A stretch of 64,000 bases of DNA, from NCBI GenBank assembly GCA_041677705.1, contig JBAYPM010000005.1, positions 23,102 through 87,101 of the forward strand. The letters are read 5' to 3'. Every line of letters begins with the position of its first letter. The first letter of the stretch is position 1. Shown piece after piece: positions 6,968-39,918 of the stretch. Under the pieces are notes generated by a model. The model saw only the letters and a program-made list of their open reading frames with translations, was not told the DNA's origin and did not search any database. This DNA is from Weeksellaceae bacterium. Its GTDB lineage: Bacteria > Bacteroidota > Bacteroidia > Flavobacteriales > Weeksellaceae. The translations under genes were made by a program, and so were the position numbers.

Positions 6968-7768
6968 ATGTATTGTATGAAAACAACAATTTTCAATCTG
7001 ATTTTGGCTGCCGGCCTCAGTTTAATGAGCTGCTCGCCGCAATCAATCTCATCAACAGTAGAAAATGAACCAAATCTTCAACTCAATGATGAACACAATT
7101 CACAAAATTCGCTTGACTGGTCCGGAAGCTATACCGGCGTTGAACCCTGTGCGGACTGTGAAGGAATCAGGACCACACTGAAAATCAGTGAGGATGGAAA
7201 TTACACTTTGGCATCAGAATATCTGGGAAAAGACAAACCGACTGTCAATGTTCAAAACGGAAAATTCAGCTGGATAGACAGAAATACAATTGAGCTGGAC
7301 GGTTTCAAACCGGGTGAAGGTTCACCTTATTTCAAAGTTGAGGAAAACAAAGTGAGACATCTGGACACCGAAGGAAAGATTATTGGTGGCGGTCTTGCCA
7401 ATCATTATGTGCTGAACAAAACCGGAAATCCTGAAGCTGAAGACATCAGATGGGAAATAACTGAATTGTACGGAAAACCAATCAACGGAAATCCTGAAAA
7501 TTATTATCTGATTTTCAATTCTGAAAAAGGAAATCTGAATGCAAAGGCAAACTGCAATACGATGACCATGCCGTATGTAATCGAAAACAGGTACAAACTG
7601 ACCGTCGGAGACGGAATTTCAACCCTGATGGCCTGTTCTGACTCAAACGATGAATCCAATCTGGTAAAAGCATTGAAGCAGGCAGACAATATCTCTGTCG
7701 GAAACGGAGTCTTGACACTCAACAAAGCAAGAATGACACCTTTGGCGAAATTTAAAAAAGCAGAATAA
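6968..7768 (+). CDS. Lipoprotein with NlpE N-terminal (copper resistance) and META domains
   Basis: Lipobox LSLMSC, SLDWSGSYTGVEPCADCEGI, C-terminal ANCN...STLMAC. Confidence 0.85.
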   Translation: MYCMKTTIFNLILAAGLSLMSCSPQSISSTVENEPNLQLNDEHNSQNSLDWSGSYTGVEPCADCEGIRTTLKISEDGNYTLASEYLGKDKPTVNVQNGKFSWIDRNTIELDGFKPGEGSPYFKVEENKVRHLDTEGKIIGGGLANHYVLNKTGNPEAEDIRWEITELYGKPINGNPENYYLIFNSEKGNLNAKANCNTMTMPYVIENRYKLTVGDGISTLMACSDSNDESNLVKALKQADNISVGNGVLTLNKARMTPLAKFKKAE

Positions 7769-27057: not shown

Positions 27058-27129
27058 GGCCCGTTCGTCTATCGGTTAGGACTTCAGATTTTCATTCTGG
27101 CAAGAGGGGTTCGATTCCCCTACGGGCTA
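27058..27129 (+). tRNA. tRNA-Glu(TTC)
   Basis: Acceptor GGCCCGT/ACGGGCT, anticodon arm TCAGA-TTTTCAT-TCTGG, T-arm GGTTCGATTCC; CCA not encoded. Confidence 0.95.
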
Positions 27130-27223
27130 CAAAAATAAACCTCTAACGATTTGATTAAAAGATTGCTAGAGGTTTTTTCTTGCTTAAAACTCCCGACATA
27201 TTCCCGATTCTGAGGAGACCATA

Positions 27224-28201
27224 TTATTTTTCCTTGTATAATTCTATATAAAATTTAGACGTTTTATAAACCTCCTCCAATGCTTTAAAGTTTATAAATA
27301 AATGCCATTCTTTTCCATAGTCATTTTCTAAACCGTGTAAAATTAAATCTCTGTCCTCTTTGAATCGTCTTCTTAGAAAATCTAATCTCTCTTGAAAAGT
27401 TATCATAATTTCGTTTGGCTCATTTCCTTTACAGAAATCGCAATCTCCAGTTATCAATCTATATTTACTATAACTTACAGGATAATCCTTTTCCCATTCT
27501 ACTTTTCTCAGAAAACCGTCTAAAGAATTAGCATAATCTTTTGATTTAATTTTCAAATCTCGTTTTTCTATCAAAAAATGACCTAATTTTCTTACTATAC
27601 CCTCAATAGAGGTTAATATGAGCAAACTACAAGCTCTGAACAATTTAACTTTATACGCTTTTTCAATTTCCTGAAAAGTGTCTTTAAATTCTTTAAAGAA
27701 TTCTTCTGATTTAAAATAGTTATGAATATCCGATTTAAAATTTTTAAAAGTAGTTGGAAGATAGGAAGCTAATTCATCTACATTTTTATTACCAACACTT
27801 ATATCTAAAGCATCATATAATTTTAAATCTGTAATCCAATACAAATCATATTTTATGCTTCCATAATAAGAATTTGCAACTATAAAAGGAATATCTATAT
27901 CATAATTAGCAAAAAGCAATTGTTGTTTACTGAAAAAATTTATGATTTTTTCTCTTTCTAATTCTTCCGCTAAATAATCTATATAATCAGAATATCTTTT
28001 AAGACTTCTTTTAACTCTTATATCTTTGTAATAGGAAACATTCACTTCATCAGGAAGACTTACGAGTTGAATACAATGACTAAATACCACATTTATAAAT
28101 TTCTTTAATAAAATCTCCCTTTCTATATACCTACTTGGTTCGTCATCTTCAAAAATTTGACGGTTTAGTTTATCTTCAATATCTCCGATAGTCATATTCA
28201 A
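27224..28201 (-). CDS. Hypothetical protein with C-terminal HEPN-like motif
   Basis: CSLLILTSIEGIVRKL helix and RDLILHG (R-x4-H). Confidence 0.55.
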   Translation of the reverse strand: MNMTIGDIEDKLNRQIFEDDEPSRYIEREILLKKFINVVFSHCIQLVSLPDEVNVSYYKDIRVKRSLKRYSDYIDYLAEELEREKIINFFSKQQLLFANYDIDIPFIVANSYYGSIKYDLYWITDLKLYDALDISVGNKNVDELASYLPTTFKNFKSDIHNYFKSEEFFKEFKDTFQEIEKAYKVKLFRACSLLILTSIEGIVRKLGHFLIEKRDLKIKSKDYANSLDGFLRKVEWEKDYPVSYSKYRLITGDCDFCKGNEPNEIMITFQERLDFLRRRFKEDRDLILHGLENDYGKEWHLFINFKALEEVYKTSKFYIELYKEK

Positions 28202-29337
28202 TATTTAAAGGTCATTAAATCCAAATACAACTTTTCATAATTTTCATCAGTATATAAGGTTTGAGGCACTTTATAATACTTGCGAAGAATTTTATTAAAA
28301 TCGTTTTCTATAATCTCTTTTTGCATAAAAACTTTTGGTATTACATCCTCAACCCCCTTTTCAAAATTATTTGATGCTATATATTCAATCTTTAAATTTT
28401 GATTTTCCTTTCCAATAATTTTACCTATTCCGAAGTCAAATATTGCAATATTCCCAATGGCTACATTATTAAGATTTTCAGTATTTAAATCCGTATTGAG
28501 AGTATTAAAAACATCAGTAAATGTTTTTGTTATGTTATCTTCAAATTTTAGTATCTTAGATATATCTCTATAAATTCCCACAATAAGTAACAGAGACCAA
28601 TCCAATAAAGTTTTAGGTGTTAATGTACTTACTATTACATTAGAATATGAAAAGTGGTTTTTCTTACTTAAAAAAGCATAACTTGTTAAATAGTCCATTC
28701 CGAGCAACAATCTTTCTTGTTTGGAATTTCCCTTAATGACATCTAAAAGTTTACTCTTAGTATTTTTTAGTAGAGATAAATTCTTTTGAGTTAGTTGCGA
28801 CCTAAAACTATTTATTGTTTTTCTATTATCCTCACTTACTTTCTTATAATATAATGGCTCACAATTATAGAAATCTTTAGAAACATTTAATTTCAATTCA
28901 TCGTAATTAAATCTATCCCCTAAATAGACCAATTGCAGTAATAACTCAATTGCTTCGTCTGTTTCATTATTTAGCTTTGCAAAAGTAAGGTTAAAGGATT
29001 TCAGTTCTAAATACAATTCAAATAAAGGTCTTAATATACTTGCTATTAATTCAACCTCTGCTTCATCCTGAAATTTAGAATTTAATTCCGCTTTTGTTAA
29101 TATATTTTCACAATCATTAATTCTTATTACATCAAGAATAGACAAAATCCTAATGTAATTTATTCCTAATGTAGAAAGTTTATCAAAAATTCTCGAAAAA
29201 ATAAAATCTCTAAAAGAACTGATTTTATTATAATCGTTTATATTTTCGATGTAATTGATATTTTTCTCAATACTAAAAAGAATTTGTTTTACAGTATTAA
29301 TTCTCCCATTCCTATCCATTGAATTCCTACATTTCAA
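28198..29337 (-). CDS. Hypothetical protein, DUF5677/HEPN-like fold
   Basis: ASILRPLFELY and SYAFLSKKNHFS segments; 4-nt overlap with the next gene. Confidence 0.45.
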   Translation of the reverse strand: MKCRNSMDRNGRINTVKQILFSIEKNINYIENINDYNKISSFRDFIFSRIFDKLSTLGINYIRILSILDVIRINDCENILTKAELNSKFQDEAEVELIASILRPLFELYLELKSFNLTFAKLNNETDEAIELLLQLVYLGDRFNYDELKLNVSKDFYNCEPLYYKKVSEDNRKTINSFRSQLTQKNLSLLKNTKSKLLDVIKGNSKQERLLLGMDYLTSYAFLSKKNHFSYSNVIVSTLTPKTLLDWSLLLIVGIYRDISKILKFEDNITKTFTDVFNTLNTDLNTENLNNVAIGNIAIFDFGIGKIIGKENQNLKIEYIASNNFEKGVEDVIPKVFMQKEIIENDFNKILRKYYKVPQTLYTDENYEKLYLDLMTFKY

Positions 29338-29635
29338 ATTTAACCTCCGTATTCCATTTTGTATAGAAAACTATTTTATCCGCTTTCGATTTTTCTTCTG
29401 TCATATAGAGAATTAAATCAGCTTGATTTTTCCATTCTATGAAATACCATTTTCCTTCTTTGGCTTGATTTATCCAATCGGTTTTCATTAGAATCCAATC
29501 GGCTTCATTTTTTTGCGTGGTTTCGTAAACAATATAATCTGCTTCCGTTTCATTATCGGTTATGTATATTTTTTGAGAAAATACACTTACTGAAAAGAAG
29601 AAGAAAAAAACGAATAAAATAATTTGACTTTTCAT
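29327..29635 (-). CDS. Small secreted protein, DUF6150-like
   Basis: Signal peptide MKSQIILFV...; three repeats of the ..EAD/QAD/KAD..IVY type. Confidence 0.6.
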   Translation of the reverse strand: MKSQIILFVFFFFFSVSVFSQKIYITDNETEADYIVYETTQKNEADWILMKTDWINQAKEGKWYFIEWKNQADLILYMTEEKSKADKIVFYTKWNTEVKFEM

Positions 29636-29820
29636 TTTAGGTTGAATTTTACCAAAATTAACTAAATTTGTAAGCTCCCCTTTTTCCAACAACTCAAAAC
29701 TAAACAAAATTATGCACTTCTATTCAATTTTTTAAACATCCACCTTATAGATATGAACGATATTGTAATGTTAGTACTTTACCCGCTATGCGCCAATGGG
29801 ATTTATAGGCTTTGGCTTTT

Positions 29821-30723
29821 TTAAAGGTTTTCCAAAGCGTCGTACAAGTCAAATTCATGTACTATAACAAGATTTGAACCTTGCTTTCTATGCGCCATTG
29901 CTTGTTCTATTTTCTTTCCATAACAAGTAAAGGCCCAACAAGAGTTTTTCTCGTCGCAAACTATAAGGTAATTTAGTTTCGAGCTCACAGAATTAACAAC
30001 GAAACCACCATATAATTCTATTTTTTCTGCAATTTCTCTTCTTTTTAAAATCCGTGAAACCCCTGTAATGCAAAATGTTTTTTCTTGGACAATTATGTCG
30101 GGATCTATTTGATAAAATCCGGTCTTGAGTGATTGTATTAAATCATTGTTAGTGTTATCATCAGAATTTCCTACAATACTTTTACAAAAGTCTAAAACGG
30201 CTTTATGTTCTTCTTCGGTAATTTTTTTATCTAATATCACATTTAATGTAAGATTATAAATTTCATCATATGGGTATGTGTTTTTTAGGTATTCATTTTC
30301 GTCTAACCAATCTTTTAAATAACGGATTTCATCATAATTAATTTCATTGTCAATGGAAATACCCATTAGGATGCCAATCAATCTTTGGATTCCTGCGGTA
30401 ATTGCGGAGTAATAACCGCTCTTATCAAGATATTGATTGCAAAACCAGATGATATTTTCACATTCTTCTTCCGTGAGAATTTCATCAGTTAAACTTTCAC
30501 GCAGTAGATTAATAATTCCTTTATACGGATTTCTTTCTTCATAAATTTTAGTTTCATTTATCCATTTCTGAACTCCTTTTTTTTCAATTTCTGTGATTTT
30601 TTTATCACTCTTTATTCCCTTTATAATTCCAACTAAAGTTTGTAAATCTTTTTCAACTATTGAAGGATTTATAAATTGCTTGTATTCTTCGTTGTCAAAT
30701 TTGTCAAAATCGGCTGTATTCAT
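29821..30723 (-). CDS. TerB-like tandem helical repeats plus C-terminal BRCT domain protein
   Basis: Two repeats (LVGIIKGIKSDKKITEIE; LIGILMGISIDNEINYDE) and BRCT FCITG...GG...SVSSKLNYLIV. Confidence 0.75.
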   Translation of the reverse strand: MNTADFDKFDNEEYKQFINPSIVEKDLQTLVGIIKGIKSDKKITEIEKKGVQKWINETKIYEERNPYKGIINLLRESLTDEILTEEECENIIWFCNQYLDKSGYYSAITAGIQRLIGILMGISIDNEINYDEIRYLKDWLDENEYLKNTYPYDEIYNLTLNVILDKKITEEEHKAVLDFCKSIVGNSDDNTNNDLIQSLKTGFYQIDPDIIVQEKTFCITGVSRILKRREIAEKIELYGGFVVNSVSSKLNYLIVCDEKNSCWAFTCYGKKIEQAMAHRKQGSNLVIVHEFDLYDALENL

Positions 30724-30757
30724 TTTGGTTTGTTTTTTAAGGAATCTTTAATGTTAT

Positions 30758-30935
30758 TGCCATTAACGTTTTAGGTATTTTCGAAAACGGGAAAATCGAT
30801 CCGCCGCGGCGGATCGATTTTGCACCGAGCCATAATATGAAGTAAATTTAAGAAAAAACGAATGATATTCATTTTAGCGAGTCTCGGAGTATAAAGCATC
30901 AGCTTGCTATTGTGATAAACCCTCGTTATATGGCA
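30758..30935. repeat. attC-like folded spacer with TAAC...GTTA termini
   Basis: tgccattaac ... gttatatggca terminal inverted repeat with one extra base; internal perfect 30-bp palindrome aaaatcgatccgccgcggcggatcgatttt. Confidence 0.55.
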
Positions 30936-30991
30936 GGCTTTTCCGCTATTCTTTTTTCGTCTGCCTGTCAGCGTTGAGTTAGGTTTCCTCT

Positions 30992-32017
30992 TCATAGCTC
31001 ATTTATTTCCTTTTCAATCAAACGATATTTATCTTTGATATCTTCTCCTGAATAAAAGTCTAGCAAGTCTTTTTTAGTTAGTGTTCCTTGGCTTAAGAAA
31101 CGTTTTAAATATTCCTGATTAAACTCCATTAGAAGAATGGATTTTTCTAATTGTTTTAGAATTGCTTTGTTGTTATCAATGTTGTTTAGAACCAAAGATT
31201 TTATTGCCAGAATTTCATTAATATCTTTAATGATACGGTTTACTATCACCGCCAAAATATCTTTGTCTAACTCAACTTTCGTAGCATTTAAAGCAATGTC
31301 ACGAGCTAACATATACGCAATAGCCAAATTGCTGTAATCTCCTTTTTGAGAATTGATAATAGCAACGAATCCAATACTAGGGATATACCCCACGTTTTCA
31401 TAGTTCCTTAAGATTGAATTTTCTATTAATGAAATATCAAATACAATTATACTTACTTTACTATCTCTATTGGCTTGTGCTTCAATTAGCTGACTCCAAG
31501 CGGTATCTGTTTTTCGTGTAAAGACGTCTTTACTTTCAATATCTCCCAAACGAATACTTTTATCAAATTTGCACTCAATGGCAATTTTCAAATCGGGCGT
31601 TCCATTCACTTCACAAATAATATCACCCGTTTTATTTTTGGGTAAATTGCCTGTAGTATTACCTGTTAAAAACGCTCTGTCTTTTAATTTTTTGTCTGCA
31701 AAATATTGATTTAAAAATTCTGCAATTTCTTCCTCAGCCAATGTTCCTTTGATAGTTGACTTGTAGAAAAGTTCTTTCTTCATTTCAAAAATCATCTTCA
31801 AACTTTCGAGCTCTGTTCCCAACTCATTTGATGTTTTTGAAAGGAAAGATGAAATACGGTCTTCCATTAGGGCCAATACACCAATGTAAATGGCTCTTAG
31901 CAATTTTTCATCTCTTTCACTTGCAGGAAGATTATCAAAGTAATTAAAAACGATTTGATTTTCGATTTCAAATTCTTTGATTTCAATTCTTTTGAGTTGT
32001 TGGTTTATTTTAAGCAT
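30992..32017 (-). CDS. Coiled-coil plus PD-(D/E)XK (RmuC/restriction-endonuclease-like) nuclease
   Basis: KGTLAEEEI, KTGDII, IAIECK. Confidence 0.65.
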   Translation of the reverse strand: MLKINQQLKRIEIKEFEIENQIVFNYFDNLPASERDEKLLRAIYIGVLALMEDRISSFLSKTSNELGTELESLKMIFEMKKELFYKSTIKGTLAEEEIAEFLNQYFADKKLKDRAFLTGNTTGNLPKNKTGDIICEVNGTPDLKIAIECKFDKSIRLGDIESKDVFTRKTDTAWSQLIEAQANRDSKVSIIVFDISLIENSILRNYENVGYIPSIGFVAIINSQKGDYSNLAIAYMLARDIALNATKVELDKDILAVIVNRIIKDINEILAIKSLVLNNIDNNKAILKQLEKSILLMEFNQEYLKRFLSQGTLTKKDLLDFYSGEDIKDKYRLIEKEINEL

Positions 32018-32019
32018 TT

Positions 32020-32229
32020 CTAAACCTTTGAATATCTATAAACCCCTTTTATGTTTTGTGCCAAATACTTACCGTGAGAGTCAGCCTGCATTAGGTCTCT
32101 ATAAATATGTTGTGGTACGTCAAAATACTGGTAAATAGAATTGTTTAAAAATTCAATCTCCAAAGTTGATGATGCCTCATCATAGCCTATTGACGCTATG
32201 TTTGATGATGTTACTGATTTTCTTTCCAT
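32020..32229 (-). CDS. KTSC domain protein
   Basis: SSNIASIGYD...LEIEF...YQYFDVP..IY..LM.ADSHGKY. Confidence 0.92.
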   Translation of the reverse strand: MERKSVTSSNIASIGYDEASSTLEIEFLNNSIYQYFDVPQHIYRDLMQADSHGKYLAQNIKGVYRYSKV

Positions 32230-32237
32230 TTTTATAT

Positions 32238-34103
32238 TTATTTAATTATACGTTCAATTTTAGGGTTTTGAGCTCTCCAAGTTTCAACAAATTCTTCATA
32301 ATTTGGGTTTTCTTCCATTTTGTTACCCCATCCACCTGGATGCAGAGAGTTTTCAGATGCAATTTCATCAAAAATAATAGGGTCTTGACTGTCGGGGCGT
32401 CTATCTTTCGGTGGGGCTTTTATAAAAGTTCGCATTGGTAACTTAACGGCTTCACCTAAGATAATTGCTTCTCCTGTTTTTAGAATTGGTAGCATACTTG
32501 TAAGACCTTCAAGATTATCAGAAACAGCACCAGTTATATGTCCTCGGTCAGAAGAATTTGAAAGTCTTAGTGCAAAGAAAGTTCCACATTGTGAAAGTAT
32601 TGTAGAATTAATTTCCGAAGGCCTTTGACTAACTATCATAGCTCCAATACCGTACTTTCTTCCTTCCTTTACTATTTTTTGAACAATAGAGAGTGCACTT
32701 CCTTCGGAATTCAAATAATTATGCGCCTCTTCCATTAATAGTAATAAAGGTCTTTCTTTTCCACCTTGGGAAAGATTTCTTGCCCAAAATAGACCATCAT
32801 AAACTATTCTAAGCAAAACTCCTATTATAGTATTTAAAATTGTGATTGGAACGCCTGATAAGTCTAGAATTGTAATTGATTTATCACTCCCAACCCAACC
32901 TTTAATTAAAGTATCTAAATCTTCATCCGTTTTTCCGTCTTGCTTAGGCATCCAATTCCCTGGCTTAAATATGAAGTCATATCTTGGAATCCTTAATTTG
33001 GAACCTAATGAATGTAATTGTTGACTACTTCCTAAAGGCGATTCGTTTGGATGCTGAACTCTATCGCCATTAGCCTTGTTTGTATTGATTTTTTTAAAGA
33101 CAGGTGGTGTAGCAGTTTCTGGGTTTCCTTTTAACTCATTTCCATCTTTGTCTATTTCGTATGCTAAAGGCTTTCCATCTTTATCTGGATAAAATTTCCC
33201 TAACGTTTGAGTGTATAGATCAAACCATAAATGATTAATACTAAATGGGACTGGAGAGTCAACATTTATCGTTTCTTTATCAACCCCTTTAAGAGGATAT
33301 TTTTCGATAGTCTTAATTTTTTCTTGTAGAATTCTTTCGAGAATAGTATTTTGGTCTTTTTCGTTATTAAATTTCCCAAAACTTATTTCACATAATTCCT
33401 CAAAACTTAATGCCCAAAAAGGTAAATACAATTCTTTTTCTTTTCTGTCAACACTTTTGTCTGCATTTATTTTATAAATATTTGCTTTGTCTTTTAGTGC
33501 CTGACTGTACTCGCCGTGAATATCAAAAACCAAAATGCGGGATGAAGGATATTTTGTTGTATCAGATAGCGCATTTAATAGACTTGCTACTGTTGTTGAT
33601 TTTCCTGACCCTGTAGTGCCAACAACAGCAGAATGTCTTGTTATTAATTTGTTTACATCAACTAATGCTGGAATAGATTCGGCACCTGCTATATACCCAA
33701 CATTCACAAAATAAGGTTTGTCTGGTTGTCCGTATATTCTTTTTAAATCTTCCTCTGAAACTAAATGAACCTCGTCACTTATAGTTGGATATTGGGAAAT
33801 ACCTCTATGAAATTCACCTGATCTTTGTCCTTCACCAACTAATTGAATTGTAATCCACCTATTGCCATATGGTTGATTTGGAATTTGATTTTCAGGTACA
33901 GCACCTGCTCCAACTTGTGTAATAATGCCAAATAAATAATTGTAACCAATAGGGATTTTCACAAAACTTCCAATTTGTCCAATTCGATAACCTTCACCGT
34001 TAACATAAGTCAAACCTGATAGTGAATCATTAACCATTGCTACCCTTATAGTTGTCCCAGTTACATCTTGAACTGTTCCTAAATATGTAGAATTATTTTT
34101 CAT
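32238..34103 (-). CDS. herA: HerA/FtsK-family ATPase (HAS barrel + DUF87)
   Basis: N-terminal GQIGSFVKI barrel, Walker A GTTGSGKST, Walker B LMEEAH, KEGRKYG, SQRPSEI. Confidence 0.92.
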   Translation of the reverse strand: MKNNSTYLGTVQDVTGTTIRVAMVNDSLSGLTYVNGEGYRIGQIGSFVKIPIGYNYLFGIITQVGAGAVPENQIPNQPYGNRWITIQLVGEGQRSGEFHRGISQYPTISDEVHLVSEEDLKRIYGQPDKPYFVNVGYIAGAESIPALVDVNKLITRHSAVVGTTGSGKSTTVASLLNALSDTTKYPSSRILVFDIHGEYSQALKDKANIYKINADKSVDRKEKELYLPFWALSFEELCEISFGKFNNEKDQNTILERILQEKIKTIEKYPLKGVDKETINVDSPVPFSINHLWFDLYTQTLGKFYPDKDGKPLAYEIDKDGNELKGNPETATPPVFKKINTNKANGDRVQHPNESPLGSSQQLHSLGSKLRIPRYDFIFKPGNWMPKQDGKTDEDLDTLIKGWVGSDKSITILDLSGVPITILNTIIGVLLRIVYDGLFWARNLSQGGKERPLLLLMEEAHNYLNSEGSALSIVQKIVKEGRKYGIGAMIVSQRPSEINSTILSQCGTFFALRLSNSSDRGHITGAVSDNLEGLTSMLPILKTGEAIILGEAVKLPMRTFIKAPPKDRRPDSQDPIIFDEIASENSLHPGGWGNKMEENPNYEEFVETWRAQNPKIERIIK

Positions 34104-35313
34104 CTAATTTAGTTTGATTGTAACCGATTAATGCTTGAAGAAAATCTCCCAATATAGAAAAATCTCCTAGTTTTAAGAGATGCTTCTCTTCTGTATCTTC
34201 ATCGGATTTAATTTTTTGAATGCAATTGGCTAAGTTATCTTCATCTTCCATTTCAGATGGGGTTTTCCATTTAGCTCTTACTGTTCCTATTATTGCTTCA
34301 TCAAAAGACCATAAAGCAAGATTATTTCTGTTTAGTGCCAATTGCATAGCTTTTGGATAACGTTCAATTTTCTTTTCATCTTTTTCATAGGTTAAAGTGT
34401 CAAATAGTAAAGCAATAGCCATAGAGTTTGGATTAGCTTTTAACGCATTCAAGATAGTATCATTCAAATGTTCATCATTAAATGAATAACCAATTAATAC
34501 CATCAGCGAATTAGGTTGCCTTAGAAATTTATTAAGTTGGTCTATTAAAGCTAAATATGGCATTTTTCTACTTTGCTCATACTTTAAGTGAGAAGGATAT
34601 ATCAGAGAAGAATCTCCGCTTTCCTTTGTAGCTATTGATCTATAGACTTCTTTGCTCTCTTTTTGAAACCAATTTATAGATCCGTGTATCTTCCATAATC
34701 GCGTCCAATGCTTGGGTATCAAGTTGTCCTCTACTGCACGTAAGTCAAAAAAAGATTGTCTTGAGCCTACAAAACCATCAAAGTAGGGGATTGACAAGGC
34801 CTCAAAGGCTTCTTCTAGTAGTACGTCGTAATTAGTAGTAAAAACTTCAATGGGTTTTTCTCTATCAATTGAAATCCATTGTGCGAGTTTGTGATATGGC
34901 GTGTCATTATCAGGAAGATTTACCATAAGTTTTTCAACTATCTTCCTGCAAATATTCTTTTCGAGCTCTATCAAGTTTTCATTTGTAAATCCTCTAACAG
35001 AATTACCGATTGAAACTTCTTTCAATCCACGAAGAAAACTCAATATATCTTCAATATTATTACTATCCTTTTGAGAAAGAATTACTTCGTCAACGAGTCT
35101 GTCATAATCATTTTTTGTGTCTGTTTCTGACTTTAGTTCTTTGGTGACAAATTCGGTTAGTTTTGCGACATCAGGAATTAATGGCCATTTGCCTTCTGGC
35201 ATCTTTACAGCAAGTGGACAACCTGCCGAAATAAAAAATCCTAATGGTTTTTTGTCTTGAGATAATGTTTGCCTCAGAAACTTTATATGCTTTACGGGGT
35301 CGTGTGTAATCAT
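34093..35313 (-). CDS. SIR2_2-family sirtuin (predicted NADase of a SIR2-HerA defence system)
   Basis: SAGC, FTTNYD, KIHGSINW, IGYSFNDEH; overlaps the HerA start. Confidence 0.9.
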   Translation of the reverse strand: MITHDPVKHIKFLRQTLSQDKKPLGFFISAGCPLAVKMPEGKWPLIPDVAKLTEFVTKELKSETDTKNDYDRLVDEVILSQKDSNNIEDILSFLRGLKEVSIGNSVRGFTNENLIELEKNICRKIVEKLMVNLPDNDTPYHKLAQWISIDREKPIEVFTTNYDVLLEEAFEALSIPYFDGFVGSRQSFFDLRAVEDNLIPKHWTRLWKIHGSINWFQKESKEVYRSIATKESGDSSLIYPSHLKYEQSRKMPYLALIDQLNKFLRQPNSLMVLIGYSFNDEHLNDTILNALKANPNSMAIALLFDTLTYEKDEKKIERYPKAMQLALNRNNLALWSFDEAIIGTVRAKWKTPSEMEDEDNLANCIQKIKSDEDTEEKHLLKLGDFSILGDFLQALIGYNQTKLDEK

Positions 35314-35422
35314 ATTTTCAAACTATTTATTCCTATTTAACCTCTATTTCAATAACTTTCTCCAAATACTATCAGCTGGTCTTATTTCCCTAGTGAAACC
35401 GTATAAGAAGCCGAAACGTTAG

Positions 35423-37480
35423 TTACAGGGCTTTTAATTCTTCAAATTCTTGTGGAATACTCAATCCTTTTTTGTAATTTTCAATATTTGAATGATTTCT
35501 GTATTTTCCAATTAATGTATTTATCGTTATAGCTGTAAAAAGAAAAACAATTATTGAAAAGCTACCAGAAATTAGAATGTTTGTTTGTAGTGTTTTGAAG
35601 TATTCAATGGCGTCATTAATATTCCAATTTGAGTTAATCAAAAGATATAATATACCACCTATAAACAGTCCAATACCAAAAAAAAGCTCAATCCAACTTT
35701 TTCTTCTCCATTTTGATACCTCCTTCTTAATCCATTCATCTCTTAAAAGTTTTCGAGAGTAATTCTGTTCAATTAGTAGTTTGTTTTCAAGTTCTGATAC
35801 TTTTTTATTGCTCTCATTTCTTTCTTCCAAAACTTGACCAAATACTTTGATTTTGTTGTCATAATTTATCTTGGACTTTTCAAGTTCATCAGTTCGCAAT
35901 GCAATATCCTTAAAAACTTTTTCTAATTTTTTAATTCTACTCTCTTCAAGTCGTTTTTGTTTTTCAGCCTCTCCTTCAAGTCGTTTTACAAATTGTTCTT
36001 TGTCTTTTTCAGCAAGAATATTTAACTCCTCAATATCTTTTAATTGTTTATTTGTAATTCTTGTTGCAACTCTTACAATATCGGCATCACTTATAGCCTC
36101 CTTTGCATATTTATGAATATTATTATCTAACTCTCTTAAAATATTTGATTTGGGTAAATTTTTGTTTAGTGTTAATGATATTATTGAAGTTAAACCAATC
36201 TCTGCTAAATCTCCCCCTTCAATTTCTCTATTTGTTTGAGGATTACTTAACCATAAAATATTCAACAAATCGTCAGCTTTTATAGTTTCTGGCTGAAACC
36301 CCTCTTTTAAAAAGATATTATCTCCTTCAACAGAAGCTGAATTATTAACAAACCAAGCATTTACTTTTTCAAAATCCTTAATCCTTTTACCTCTTTTCTT
36401 TTTGATGTAAAGAATTGCAACTGCATCGTGTAATGCAGATTTTCTCGTGGTTCTAACCTGTTCGAAAATTTTAAATTCATCGGTAAATTTTGCCTCATTT
36501 TTTAATTTGTCTGTATTATACAATACACTTATACCAAATTCATGTATTGAACTTTCCAGATTGTCCGCAACGCGCTCTAAATCTGTTTTAGAAAAACCTT
36601 TTCTATCACAAGCGTTATACACGTCTTCTGGATTAACTTTTTTCTGTAAAAAAGATTTGTCAAAAAATGCGGCCTTTGTTTCTAAAAGATTTTTAGTTTC
36701 TTCTATTGTGTCTTTTAAAACATGGATTTTAAAGCCTTGCTGTTTACTAATTTTTACTAAAGTTCTACAAGTGTGAGTTGATTCAGGTGTGTTCAAGTCT
36801 AACAATGCAACAATAAAATTAGTATCCAATAATAGCTCTATTTCACTTTTCACACTGTCTGGATTGTACTCAATGTAGCCAGATATGATTGAGCCTAGAT
36901 AAATATTTTTAATTCTGTCGTAAATTGTGGGTATTCTTCTGAAGAAATTAATAAATTGAGCTTCTGCTGTATAGTCCTCGCCATTAATATGTTGATTATT
37001 GGATATGTATTTTGAAAGAGTGAATTTATTCTTCTCAATAAAATTGAAGATAGTATTTCCATTTTCGATTTCTAATTCAGATGTTTCGCAAAATTTTTTA
37101 AATAATTCTTCTAGTTCATTTATTTCATTTTCTTGATTTGCAATAATATCCTCAAAGTCGGTAAATGTATATTGATTAATACTAAAAGCACCATCTTTAT
37201 ATAGTATAAAATGCGTTGTTTCTTCTGTATTTACTTCCTTACAAATTTCTTCTAGGATTTTTTTCAAAACGGGAATTGGGAAGTCTAAAGAATACAGAGA
37301 GTCTGTTTTGCTTTTTATTTCTAAAATACTTTTTCCTTTAAAAATTCCTTCAATGTTCATCTTTGATAGGGCCCTCTTAACAAGAGGGATAAATATATCA
37401 ATTGGACCTTTTACTAATGTCCCAGTATTTCGAATATGAGCCAACAAGCCATAAGTTACTGCTCTTTCCTTATTATTCAT
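35423..37480 (-). CDS. Large protein: central PIN-like domain, coiled coil, two C-terminal TM helices
   Basis: LLLDTNFIVALL, DTIEE, ALHDA acidic motifs; charged heptad region; WIELFFGIGLFIGGILYLLI and ILISGSFSIIVFLFTAITI. Confidence 0.65.
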   Translation of the reverse strand: MNNKERAVTYGLLAHIRNTGTLVKGPIDIFIPLVKRALSKMNIEGIFKGKSILEIKSKTDSLYSLDFPIPVLKKILEEICKEVNTEETTHFILYKDGAFSINQYTFTDFEDIIANQENEINELEELFKKFCETSELEIENGNTIFNFIEKNKFTLSKYISNNQHINGEDYTAEAQFINFFRRIPTIYDRIKNIYLGSIISGYIEYNPDSVKSEIELLLDTNFIVALLDLNTPESTHTCRTLVKISKQQGFKIHVLKDTIEETKNLLETKAAFFDKSFLQKKVNPEDVYNACDRKGFSKTDLERVADNLESSIHEFGISVLYNTDKLKNEAKFTDEFKIFEQVRTTRKSALHDAVAILYIKKKRGKRIKDFEKVNAWFVNNSASVEGDNIFLKEGFQPETIKADDLLNILWLSNPQTNREIEGGDLAEIGLTSIISLTLNKNLPKSNILRELDNNIHKYAKEAISDADIVRVATRITNKQLKDIEELNILAEKDKEQFVKRLEGEAEKQKRLEESRIKKLEKVFKDIALRTDELEKSKINYDNKIKVFGQVLEERNESNKKVSELENKLLIEQNYSRKLLRDEWIKKEVSKWRRKSWIELFFGIGLFIGGILYLLINSNWNINDAIEYFKTLQTNILISGSFSIIVFLFTAITINTLIGKYRNHSNIENYKKGLSIPQEFEELKAL

Positions 37481-37604
37481 TATTTCTATGGTTCTGATTT
37501 TCAAGCTTTGCCTATTACTCCCAAATATCTAAAATATTCTCAAATTTCACAAAAAAATTCATAAATTAGACCCGTAAGATTCAATAATTTGTTTGACATA
37601 ATCT

Positions 37605-38075
37605 ATGACAACAACTTCCAAAATATTATATCTTACATTTTTCTTATTACCACTTCTTGCCTACTCGCAAGTCACGGCAAAAGTTGTTGGTATAAAAGAC
37701 GGAGATACTATTGTCGTACTTCTAAAAAATAAAACCCAACAAACCCTTCGATTAGCAGAAGTAGATTGCCCTGAAAATGGTCAAGCCTTTGCAAGAAACG
37801 CAAAACAGTTTACTTCAGATGCCGTTTTTAGAAAAGAAATAACATATATAGAAACAGATCGGGACAGGTGGGGACGCATAATCGCCAAGGTATATTACGA
37901 TGACAATTTATACCTCTCTGCGGAAATCATAAAAGCAGGTATGGGATGGTGGTATTATAGATATTCTGATGATGAAAGTTTAGGCGATTTAGAAAATGAT
38001 GCTAAAACAAATAACCGAGGTTTATGGCAAGACTCCAATGCAATTGCCCCATGGGAATTTAGGAAATTAAAATAA
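37605..38075 (+). CDS. Thermonuclease (SNase-like) with signal peptide
   Basis: IKDGDTI, RLAEVDCPE, DRWGRIIA, GLWQD..PWEFR. Confidence 0.92.
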   Translation: MTTTSKILYLTFFLLPLLAYSQVTAKVVGIKDGDTIVVLLKNKTQQTLRLAEVDCPENGQAFARNAKQFTSDAVFRKEITYIETDRDRWGRIIAKVYYDDNLYLSAEIIKAGMGWWYYRYSDDESLGDLENDAKTNNRGLWQDSNAIAPWEFRKLK

Positions 38076-38414
38076 TTTCATTTATTCTTTGTTTCATATC
38101 CACATAATATTTTTCCTTTTTACCTGTAAGTTTATTGTCCAGTTTATAACATTCTTCAACAATTTGAAGAATTTCCCTCTTCTCTTTCACGACTAATAAC
38201 TCACAAAAATTTAGGTTTAGAAATTGTATAACTTCTATTAGCTTATTCCATCCACTAAAATGTCAGCTCTTTCTATACGACCAACTGATGTGTTTGTAGA
38301 GCCAATCCTTAAAGCAAGATCAAATTGGGAAATACCCAATTTTAAACGAGCAAGCTTAATTCTATGCCCAAGATAAATATTAACCTTCTTAAATTCTTTC
38401 TCGCTGAATATCAT
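38059..38414 (-). pseudogene. Frameshifted XRE-family HTH regulator
   Basis: MIFSEKEFKK...LGHRIKLARLKLGISQFDLALRIGSTNTSVGRIERA, then continues in another frame (GWNKLIEVIQFLNLNFCEL...) after about 38263; not in ORF track. Confidence 0.65.
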
Positions 38415-38423
38415 ACTTCTATA

Positions 38424-38675
38424 TTAGTAATTAAATAAATCCCTCAAAGAAACATTTAGGACTTTAGATAGTGCCAATAGGGTTTCAAATGAAGGATTTG
38501 TCTCTCCTCTCTCAATCTCCCCAATTGTTTTTTTAGACAAATATTCACTTCTATCACTTAATTCTTGTTGTGATATTGACCTATTATTATATTCAGTGCT
38601 TTTGATTTTCTTTCTTAATTTAAGAACATGCTTACCAAGCTTCTCTTTCTCAATTTCAAAATCTATTTTATTCAT
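38424..38675 (-). CDS. XRE-family HTH regulator
   Basis: LGKHVLKLR...SQQELS...TIGEIERGETNPSFETLLALSKVL; start placed at MNKIDF. Confidence 0.88.
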   Translation of the reverse strand: MNKIDFEIEKEKLGKHVLKLRKKIKSTEYNNRSISQQELSDRSEYLSKKTIGEIERGETNPSFETLLALSKVLNVSLRDLFNY

Positions 38676-38741
38676 TTTATAAATTTCCTTGTTAAAGAGG
38701 AATTTTTTGGTAACGTATAGGGTACTATAAATAATTTTATT

Positions 38742-38749
38742 TATATTTG
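38742..38749 (+). promoter_or_regulatory. -7 promoter box pointing into ncRNA-like copy 1
   Basis: tatatttg (TAnnTTTG), divergent from the XRE gene. Confidence 0.55.
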
Positions 38750-38802
38750 CCTCGAATAACATATTGCAATTCTTCCAATAGGAATAAAATATTGAAGCAA
38801 TT

Positions 38803-38951
38803 GCTTGGAATCTCGCCCGAAAACTGGTAATTTTCAAAGAAACGAGACCAATAAGCAAGATGCTCACGTCCCGGGCGTGGCCTTCTTATCGTTCCTTAGG
38901 CGTACCAGTGCCTCGATTCGGTAAGTTGAGTTCACGCCCTTTTTCTTGCGT
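38803..38951 (+). ncRNA. Candidate structured ncRNA, copy 1
   Basis: Non-coding, strongly similar to 39374..39526; complementary blocks ACTGGTA/TACCAGT and GGGCGTG/CACGCCC; ends in a T run. Confidence 0.6.
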
Positions 38952-38979
38952 AGTAACTCACAGCCATATCATTCTTAAT

Positions 38980-39219
38980 CTAATACTTCTTTATATCGAA
39001 TTCAAAATCAAACAATTGTTTTGGTTGAACATTTAATGCTTGTGCAAATTTCAACAAAGTACTTATTGTGAGATTTATTTTCCCCTGTTCATATCTGCTA
39101 ATTTCTGAATTCTCAATCCCGGTAAGAAAACTTAAGTCATTTTGTGTTTGCTTATTCTTTTCCCGAAATTCTGCAATCTTGTTACCAATTCCCTCTAAAA
39201 AATCGCTTTTAATATCCAT
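38980..39219 (-). CDS. XRE-family HTH regulator
   Basis: IGNKIAEFR...TQNDLSFLTGIENSEISRYEQGKINLTISTLLKFAQAL. Confidence 0.9.
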   Translation of the reverse strand: MDIKSDFLEGIGNKIAEFREKNKQTQNDLSFLTGIENSEISRYEQGKINLTISTLLKFAQALNVQPKQLFDFEFDIKKY

Positions 39220-39300
39220 AGTAAGCTTTGTTTTAAAAGCAATTTCCCTTTATTTTGATAAAATTTTATTGGGATATATCACAATATTGAAATAAATTCT

Positions 39301-39308
39301 TATATTTG
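39301..39308 (+). promoter_or_regulatory. -7 promoter box pointing into ncRNA-like copy 2
   Basis: tatatttg, same arrangement as in copy 1. Confidence 0.55.
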
Positions 39309-39373
39309 TTCAATAGTTACATCAATAGATGTAATTTAGCGATTCTTCGATTAGGAAAATATTAGAAGCTTTC

Positions 39374-39526
39374 GCTTAGAATCTCGCCTTTGGAAACTGG
39401 TAATTTAAATCGGAACGAGAGGATAAGCAGAAGGCTCACGACCGCGGGCGTGGGCTTTCTTACTGTTCCTCGGTATACCAGTACCTCAAAGGCGGTAAGT
39501 TGAGTTCACGCCCTTTTTTCTTGCGT
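39374..39526 (+). ncRNA. Candidate structured ncRNA, copy 2
   Basis: Homologous to 38803..38951 with compensatory changes in the outer helix. Confidence 0.6.
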
Positions 39527-39918
39527 ATTCTTCAACTGATTTTCTAGGCATCTTCTCATTCTTCCGGAGATTGCAACAATTAACTTGTAATAAATCAAAA
39601 AAAAAGTGCCTATGTAAAAAAACATCTGAAACAACTGCAGTAAGAGAAAAATTATTCTTTCACAAACCTGTCCAATAAAGCGTGTGTTAATTATTTGGTC
39701 CCTCTGCTTTGGCTCAAGAAGTCAGGGTAAGCACATCCAAAGCCGACGCAGAGGGTTTTTCAAAAGAAAGAAAAAGGGGCAAAAACACCTTTGCCCGAAC
39801 GATCCACCGCTGCTTACTGTCCCACCATTACATAAAAATGCCCTCTGCAACTGACTTGACAAACAATGCAGAGAGCACGGATTTTAAAATAAAGTATCAC
39901 TAAAACCCATTCAAAATT

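Follow-up and report, generated by a model that had tools for sequence, protein, structure and literature searches.

We analysed a 64,000-nucleotide (nt) stretch of DNA from a Weeksellaceae bacterium (GenBank assembly GCA_041677705.1, contig JBAYPM010000005.1, positions 23,102 to 87,101 of the forward strand), here called the window, and all positions refer to this whole stretch. The open reading frame (ORF) listing with translations places four same-direction ORFs on the minus strand at 30992-35313. They encode, in order, a SIR2-family protein, a HerA-type ATPase, a small KTSC protein and an unnamed protein that resembles PD-(D/E)XK nucleases, whose gene is termed gene 4 or P4 (Table 1). SIR2 shares 11 nt with HerA, 8 nt separate HerA from KTSC, and 2 nt lie between KTSC and gene 4. 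The gene order and spacing claimed in a first-pass annotation of this DNA match the ORF listing exactly.

Table 1. Features of the four-gene operon and its borders in the window (aa, amino acids)
Feature	Positions	Strand	Basis or remark
SIR2-family NADase, 406 aa	34093-35313	-	First operon gene; PF13289, PADLOC SIR2 and 8W9L matches
HerA-type ATPase, 621 aa	32238-34103	-	DUF87, PADLOC HerA and 8WIV matches
KTSC protein, 69 aa	32020-32229	-	PF13619; aligns with 8WIV residues 628-696
Gene 4 (P4), 341 aa, unnamed PD-(D/E)XK-like	30992-32017	-	Invariant residues, AlphaFold2 model, weak Foldseek matches
Leader/promoter region, ~90 nt, 5' of SIR2	35314-35404	-	blastn homology to other cassette copies
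Terminator-like hairpin, perfect 13 bp plus U-rich tract	30792-30821	-	~170 nt 3' of the gene 4 stop

The SIR2 protein matched PF13289 (5.8e-18) and the PADLOC SIR2 model (1e-144), and it aligned with the SIR2 protein of Paenibacillus sp. 453MF (PDB 8W9L) at 5.3e-95. Its TTNYD and HGS motifs line up with N163, D165 and H212 of 8W9L, which are the putative catalytic residues of the Paenibacillus protein (PMC11472057). The HerA protein matched DUF87 (6.5e-41) and the PADLOC HerA model (5e-164), and its residues 3-620 matched residues 9-611 of the 696-aa Paenibacillus HerA (8WIV) at 1.3e-200. Both the Walker A motif (GTTGSGKST) and the Walker B motif (LLLLMEEAH) were readable in the translation. 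Moreover, sir2 lies directly upstream of herA on the same strand and overlaps it, which fits the Paenibacillus-type arrangement. Judged from these alignments, SIR2 and HerA are close homologues of the solved Paenibacillus sp. 453MF system, with the catalytic N/D/H residues and the Walker motifs intact. The Pfam, PADLOC and Paenibacillus matches thus bear out the call of a SIR2-HerA defence operon, and the domain calls for SIR2, HerA and KTSC are supported by Pfam (PF13289, DUF87 and PF13619), the first two also by PADLOC.

KTSC had been read as an addition to the canonical system, and this reading did not hold. The protein matched PF13619 at 7.5e-27, and its residues 1-69 align end to end with residues 628-696 of 8WIV, the C-terminal end of the studied Paenibacillus HerA (4.4e-18), with Met1 on Met628. 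In the Paenibacillus protein, residues 576-696 form the 'C-terminal arm domain', and the split-spiral HerA hexamer is stabilised by a unique C-terminal extension (PMC11472057). Because of this end-to-end alignment, we identify the KTSC protein as HerA's own C-terminal tail, which is separately encoded here, and not as a new accessory. KTSC is an ORF of its own behind HerA in 50 related loci, and the HerA/KTSC split is therefore no assembly artefact. The pairwise identity of KTSC also tracks that of HerA (r = 0.90). We used 400 other Bacteroidota genomes as an unbiased sample for the occurrence of SIR2-HerA and P4, and KTSC was directly downstream in 9 of the 12 SIR2-HerA loci that this sample contained. 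The HerA-KTSC linkage has been noted before (Iyer et al. 2022, PMC9503650).

Gene 4 has 2655 homologues at E <= 1e-3, with 292 representatives in a library clustered at 50%. The 120 matches listed are 85-92% identical to it; few of the homologues among them are named, all of these as 'hypothetical protein'. A comparison of 50 diverse full-length homologues (23-54% identity) showed that G91, E95, G131, D132, E148, K150, R184 and L231 are invariant, and E95, D132 and E148-x-K150 fit the E...D...(D/E)xK catalytic pattern. Matches to PDDEXK_15 of Pfam, all below the cut-off, were obtained with 10 of the 50 homologues. The AlphaFold2 model of gene 4 (pLDDT 89) consists of three short N-terminal strands with helices, an alpha/beta core (residues ~86-245) and a long C-terminal helix of 59 residues (252-310). 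Foldseek matches of this model to solved structures were weak (E 0.03-1), and almost all were of the restriction-endonuclease fold, including MspJI, Bax1, McrC, VC1899, EcoT38I, BstEII, EcoRV and the R2 endonuclease domain. The best viral match was an Mrr-domain protein (2e-5), and a model of the core alone (pLDDT 82) did not improve the fold matches. Taken together, the residue pattern and the predicted fold of gene 4 suggest a new family of PD-(D/E)XK nucleases. The earlier PD-(D/E)XK call therefore stands as far as the invariant E/D/ExK residues, the predominance of restriction folds among the weak Foldseek matches and the sub-threshold PDDEXK_15 matches carry it, and falls short in that there is no curated family match.

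Synonymous codon variation is even along P4 (0.71-0.87), and the conservation of P4 therefore acts on the protein. An embedded DNA element as the cause of this conservation was rejected on the same observation.

The four-gene order recurs beyond the window, in line with the first-pass annotation. We compared the window with sampled loci, which are given L-numbers below. The window block aligns continuously, at 72-83% nt identity, with L002, L003, L005, L008, L018, L019, L063 and L078; this alignment begins 0-91 nt ahead of the SIR2 start and ends within 33 nt of the P4 stop. Plasmid pPZ02 of Paracoccus zhejiangensis (Alphaproteobacteria), the single plasmid match of gene 4, carries all four genes (SIR2, HerA, KTSC and P4) in the order of the window, with an overlap of 11 nt and gaps of 2 nt, and its proteins are 42%, 61%, 48% and 63% identical to those of the window, respectively. 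A metagenome scan seeded with the Paracoccus protein yielded a high-GC set of 22 loci. All four genes were present in each of the 12 loci of this set with enough upstream sequence, and in at least seven diverged high-GC lineages (67-73% nt identical) the homology is confined exactly to the stretch between the SIR2 start and the P4 stop, and the flanks are unrelated. The Bacteroidota alignment, the Paracoccus plasmid and the high-GC lineages together indicate that SIR2-HerA-KTSC-P4 can be one inherited unit of ~4.35 kb in at least two phyla. The view of gene 4 as a mere unrelated neighbour or hotspot anchor is weakened by the strict four-gene unit on the plasmid and in the high-GC clade.

Inheritance of the four genes together, with exact boundaries in at least two phyla, would also be expected of a true four-component variant, in which KTSC would act as a sensor or regulator and the HerA motor would load the nuclease, as a dedicated second effector, onto DNA. 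The tight gene spacing in the operon and the HerA + KTSC + endoDNase systems noted by Iyer et al. 2022 (PMC9503650) speak for it as well. However, KTSC is simply the tail of HerA, and in the Bacteroidota sample the occurrence of P4 does not follow that of SIR2-HerA. Among the 400 sampled Bacteroidota genomes, SIR2-HerA of this kind was found in 12 and P4 in none, and P4 is thus missing from all 12 sampled SIR2-HerA loci. Across 50 four-gene loci, pairwise identities correlate strongly between SIR2 and HerA (r = 0.97) and between HerA and KTSC, whereas the HerA-P4 correlation is 0.30; pairs with only 40-50% HerA identity reach up to 98% identity in P4. P4 thus fails to co-diverge with any of SIR2, HerA and KTSC.

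The genes upstream of P4 differ from locus to locus. In the 113 low-GC P4 loci whose upstream sequence was long enough, the partner directly before P4 was SIR2-HerA in 46 (with KTSC split or fused), an OLD-family nuclease in 20, an SMC/LmuB-like gene in 20, PDC-S06 / AAA_13 in 11, PDC-S46 in 5 and another gene in 11, so that 67 of the 113 had a partner other than SIR2-HerA. Where the partner is directly adjacent, it shares the strand of P4, the median gaps range from -23 to +16.5 nt, and the stop codon is often merged with the start codon in TAATG. The P4 tree shows 40 switches of partner label, against a possible minimum of 5, and its clades follow host taxa more than partners. Distant P4 homologues (30-54%) lie near WYL regulators, NERD-UvrD, PTP-SAK, ADP-ribosylglycohydrolase, or T5orf172 with a DEAD helicase, and no constant partner of these distant homologues was found. 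The occurrence of a near-identical nuclease behind structurally unrelated ATPases, such as OLD, PDC-S06 or SMC-like genes, speaks against an interface specific to HerA. The neighbourhood survey is thus divided: the four-gene order recurs in at least two phyla, but P4 is absent from the 12 sampled SIR2-HerA loci and has other partners in most low-GC loci. With the low HerA-P4 correlation and the tight coupling of P4 to OLD, PDC-S06, PDC-S46 and SMC-like ATPases, the earlier proposal that the nuclease is a dedicated SIR2-HerA component is not supported, and we regard the four-component variant as improbable.

The exchange of partners could also mean that gene 4 is no defence effector but serves the mobility or maintenance of a cassette-exchange hotspot, or forms its passive conserved 'bookend'; either its conserved sequence or its nuclease activity would then enable recombinational swaps of the defence cassettes upstream. 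Homology between loci breaks exactly at the P4 start codon. In L007, the ~90-nt leader of the window (83%) and P4 (85% nt) are kept, while the SIR2-HerA-KTSC interior between them has been replaced and is only 34-46% identical; in L011, c4-OLD is inserted between KTSC and P4. Flavobacterium species have in common the syntenic arrangement c20-KTSC-c4-[X]-P4-lipoprotein genes, where nothing but the slot X varies, and P4 (81-86% nt) is more conserved there than the host flanks (65-74%). A ~300-nt element after or near P4 in more than 25 loci, with a 55-nt core that is repeated in L216 and L002, would also suit such a hotspot. On the other side, the even synonymous variation points to constraint at the protein level rather than at a DNA site, the distant homologues (30-54%) lie inside other conflict-type operons, no recombinase is consistently nearby, and no swapping is seen in the high-GC clade. 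Considering both sides, we give this explanation a small chance.

Taken as a whole, the operon is probably a known Paenibacillus-type SIR2-HerA abortive-infection system with an add-on nuclease that does not depend on one particular partner. In this preferred reading, the KTSC tail is translated as a 69-aa polypeptide of its own and presumably rejoins the HerA hexamer in trans. By homology with the Paenibacillus and Escherichia coli systems, SIR2-HerA would form a large complex and deplete NAD+ on infection. Gene 4 would be a separate module, a Mg2+-dependent DNA endonuclease that is probably oligomerised through its long C-terminal helix, and no structural subunit of the SIR2-HerA complex. 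It appears to have no room for a promoter of its own and would be expressed by read-through and start/stop coupling from the operon that it ends, on a common transcript, gene 4 included, that would stop at the terminator-like hairpin (Table 1). Gene 4 may travel with SIR2-HerA-KTSC as a 4.35-kb cassette, or recombination at its start codon may place the nuclease behind other defence NTPases; in either case it would add a DNA-cleaving activity to whichever abortive-infection module lies upstream.

Several points weigh against this preferred reading. The gene 4 protein of the window had no significant match in Pfam, NCBIfam, PADLOC or the PDB sequence set, and its fold matches are weak, as stated above. 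The loci were sampled through P4 itself, which inflates the apparent link to defence genes; the metagenome loci include duplicates (L149 = L150, L151 = L152 and L158 = L159); and ORF starts were called mechanically, which makes the gap sizes approximate. Moreover, the strict four-gene unity in the high-GC lineages could mean that gene 4 depends functionally on the upstream ATPase, and so could its constant place behind NTPases. In other searches with gene 4, one borderline PADLOC match, CARF_RelE, was obtained at E 0.0099, and no homologue was found among phage sequences.

It is possible that a common substrate or product, such as DNA nicks or ends, links gene 4 to its varied partners; type III Sir2-HerA is reportedly gated by DNA ends. 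A further-reaching proposal is that gene 4 is a new component class, a plug-in nuclease of at least five unrelated NTPase systems (SIR2-HerA, OLD, PDC-S06/AAA_13, PDC-S46 and SMC/LmuB-like) that cuts invading DNA and so produces the nicks or ends that trigger end-responsive ATPases. Such a common trigger would explain the swapping of gene 4 between systems without co-evolution, and we nevertheless consider the proposal unlikely as it stands. The same gating by DNA ends would be compatible with a role of gene 4 as a safeguard or regulator of the upstream module, which for example clears self-DNA intermediates and lowers autoimmunity rather than attacking phage. Gene 4 would always be co-expressed with systems that are toxic once triggered, as such a role would have it, but most copies of the same upstream systems lack gene 4, and we think this role very improbable.

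The ~300-nt element mentioned above is a C/A-rich conserved non-coding element (L005:9027-9330) that lies directly after the P4 stop or 1-3 kb downstream. The loci that carry it include L001, L002, L003, L007, L013, L172, L174, L179, L182, L186, L189 and L194, as well as L201, L207, L216 and others, and their upstream partners differ. The element downstream of P4 in these relatives belongs to no Rfam family, and what the window shares with it is limited to roughly 20 nt immediately behind the P4 stop. Its 55-nt core, GCACATTTGCAA...TTGCAAAAGAGCT, occurs a second time at 939-993 in L216 (~6 kb upstream of P4) and at 10672-10727 in L002. On the sequence, the repeated core could represent att-like borders of tandemly inserted islands. 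In the Niabella locus L002, a Flavo-1 RNA motif (Rfam RF01705) at 7582-7655, ~1.8 kb downstream of P4, scored 45.6 bits and so exceeded the gathering score.

We also examined the spacers that flank the operon (35314-35422 and 30724-30991), which had been described as attC-like. No repeat common to the two spacers was found. When three spacer segments were folded and compared with shuffled sequences, two were no better than the shuffles (z +0.66 and +0.68), and the third, a 137-nt segment that holds the hairpin, gave z = -3.05. The hairpin, AAAATCGATCCGCCGCGGCGGATCGATTTT, looks like a terminator, with its 13-bp stem and U-rich tract. No tyrosine recombinase is encoded on the window's contig, and all six of the genome lie on other contigs. 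We therefore discarded an integron/attC cassette array, for which there is no repeat family, no fold signal beyond the terminator-like hairpin and no integrase on the contig, and the description of the spacers as attC-like was dropped with it. The blastn homology of the leader with L002, L003, L005, L008 and L011 begins at window positions 35388-35404 (reg positions 97-113).

The operon sits in a low-GC stretch at ~27-39 kb (GC 0.27-0.34, compared with ~0.40). This island (27058-39800) begins directly after a tRNA-Glu gene at 27058-27130, which was the sole match in an Rfam scan of the island. It also encodes two coupled ORFs without an assigned family (27224-29337), a DUF6150 protein, a BRCT-domain protein downstream of P4 (300 aa, 29821-30723), a 693-aa protein without an assigned family (35423-37504), a secreted staphylococcal-nuclease homologue on the plus strand (37605-38075) and XRE-type regulators. 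Homologues of the BRCT-domain protein with 35-36% identity occur in the P4 loci L054 (9129-14438) and L057, where they are partnered by a ~1460-aa protein that is missing from the window. Beside the XRE genes, segments of 38794-39520 repeat at a spacing of ~570 nt, with an identical 26-mer at 38919 and 39493.

Small genes and further KTSC domains were observed in the compared P4 loci. The genes c4 (72 aa, L053:4288-4506), c6 (95 aa, L053:3998-4285) and c59 (82 aa, L046:5422-5670) precede the variable ATPase, and c6 is related to c59 (95% probability). The c4 gene, which stands before OLD, PDC-S06 and other genes, was considered as a KTSC paralogue and not accepted; a full-length hhalign alignment (E 6.6e-4, probability 27%) suggests this weakly. 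It was found in 17 of the 400 sampled Bacteroidota genomes, all of which lack P4, mostly beside other genes and once directly before an OLD gene. L014:3778-5628 and its relatives (c10/c11) encode a ~616-aa Schlafen/AlbA_2 + HATPase_c_4 protein with its own C-terminal KTSC domain, preceded by an XRE-like gene and followed by a second, free-standing KTSC gene. This protein is another defence-type ATPase linked to KTSC.

Among known systems, the operon is closest to SIR2-HerA of Paenibacillus sp. 453MF (8W9L, 8WIV and 8WLD; PMC11472057), with which it shares SIR2 (5e-95, with the catalytic N/D/H residues), HerA (1e-200) and the gene order, and whose HerA residues 628-696 correspond to the KTSC protein here. 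It differs in that HerA is split into a 621-aa ATPase and the 69-aa KTSC protein, and in that a fourth, PD-(D/E)XK-like gene follows 2 nt after KTSC; the Paenibacillus system is described as comprising two genes. SIR2-HerA is thus already known, and the KTSC split is a minor variant of it. HerA + KTSC + endoDNase and HerA-DUF4297 (Cap4-like) systems likewise link a HerA ATPase to a KTSC domain and a restriction-fold nuclease. In those systems, however, the nuclease is described as taking the place of the sirtuin, the two being mutually exclusive (Iyer et al. 2022, PMC9503650; bioRxiv 10.1101/2024.10.24.620088), whereas here a sirtuin and a putative nuclease are both present; gene 4 gave no DUF4297/Cap4 match to PADLOC or Pfam models at the thresholds used. 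Solitary restriction-fold defence nucleases (type IV enzymes such as MspJI, Mrr and McrC, and Shedu) include its best, though weak, fold matches and share the E...D...ExK pattern. Unlike them, gene 4 hardly ever stands alone and shows start/stop coupling with the NTPase gene before it, and it has no significant sequence or HMM (hidden Markov model) match.

Defence hotspots with conserved flanking genes, such as those of P2/P4 elements, hold variable cassettes beside a conserved gene. Variable defence cassettes likewise adjoin a conserved gene here, namely gene 4. In contrast to such hotspots, this conserved flank is a rare accessory gene for a putative nuclease (absent from all 400 sampled genomes) whose translation is coupled to that of the cassette and which accompanies it from one phylum to another.

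Neither P4 nor a four-gene SIR2-HerA operon was described in the literature that we searched. The KTSC 'arm' as a separate polypeptide offers a natural way to test the role of the arm, and lies outside the two-gene structural work. A very conserved, unnamed putative nuclease repeatedly ends SIR2-HerA operons and those of several unrelated defence ATPases, and it is currently missed by the defence catalogues PADLOC, Pfam and NCBIfam. Should this nuclease play a part in immunity, systems that are now treated as independent would share a reusable effector or trigger module; should it merely mark a recombination hotspot, it would still be of use in the search for swappable defence cassettes of Bacteroidota.

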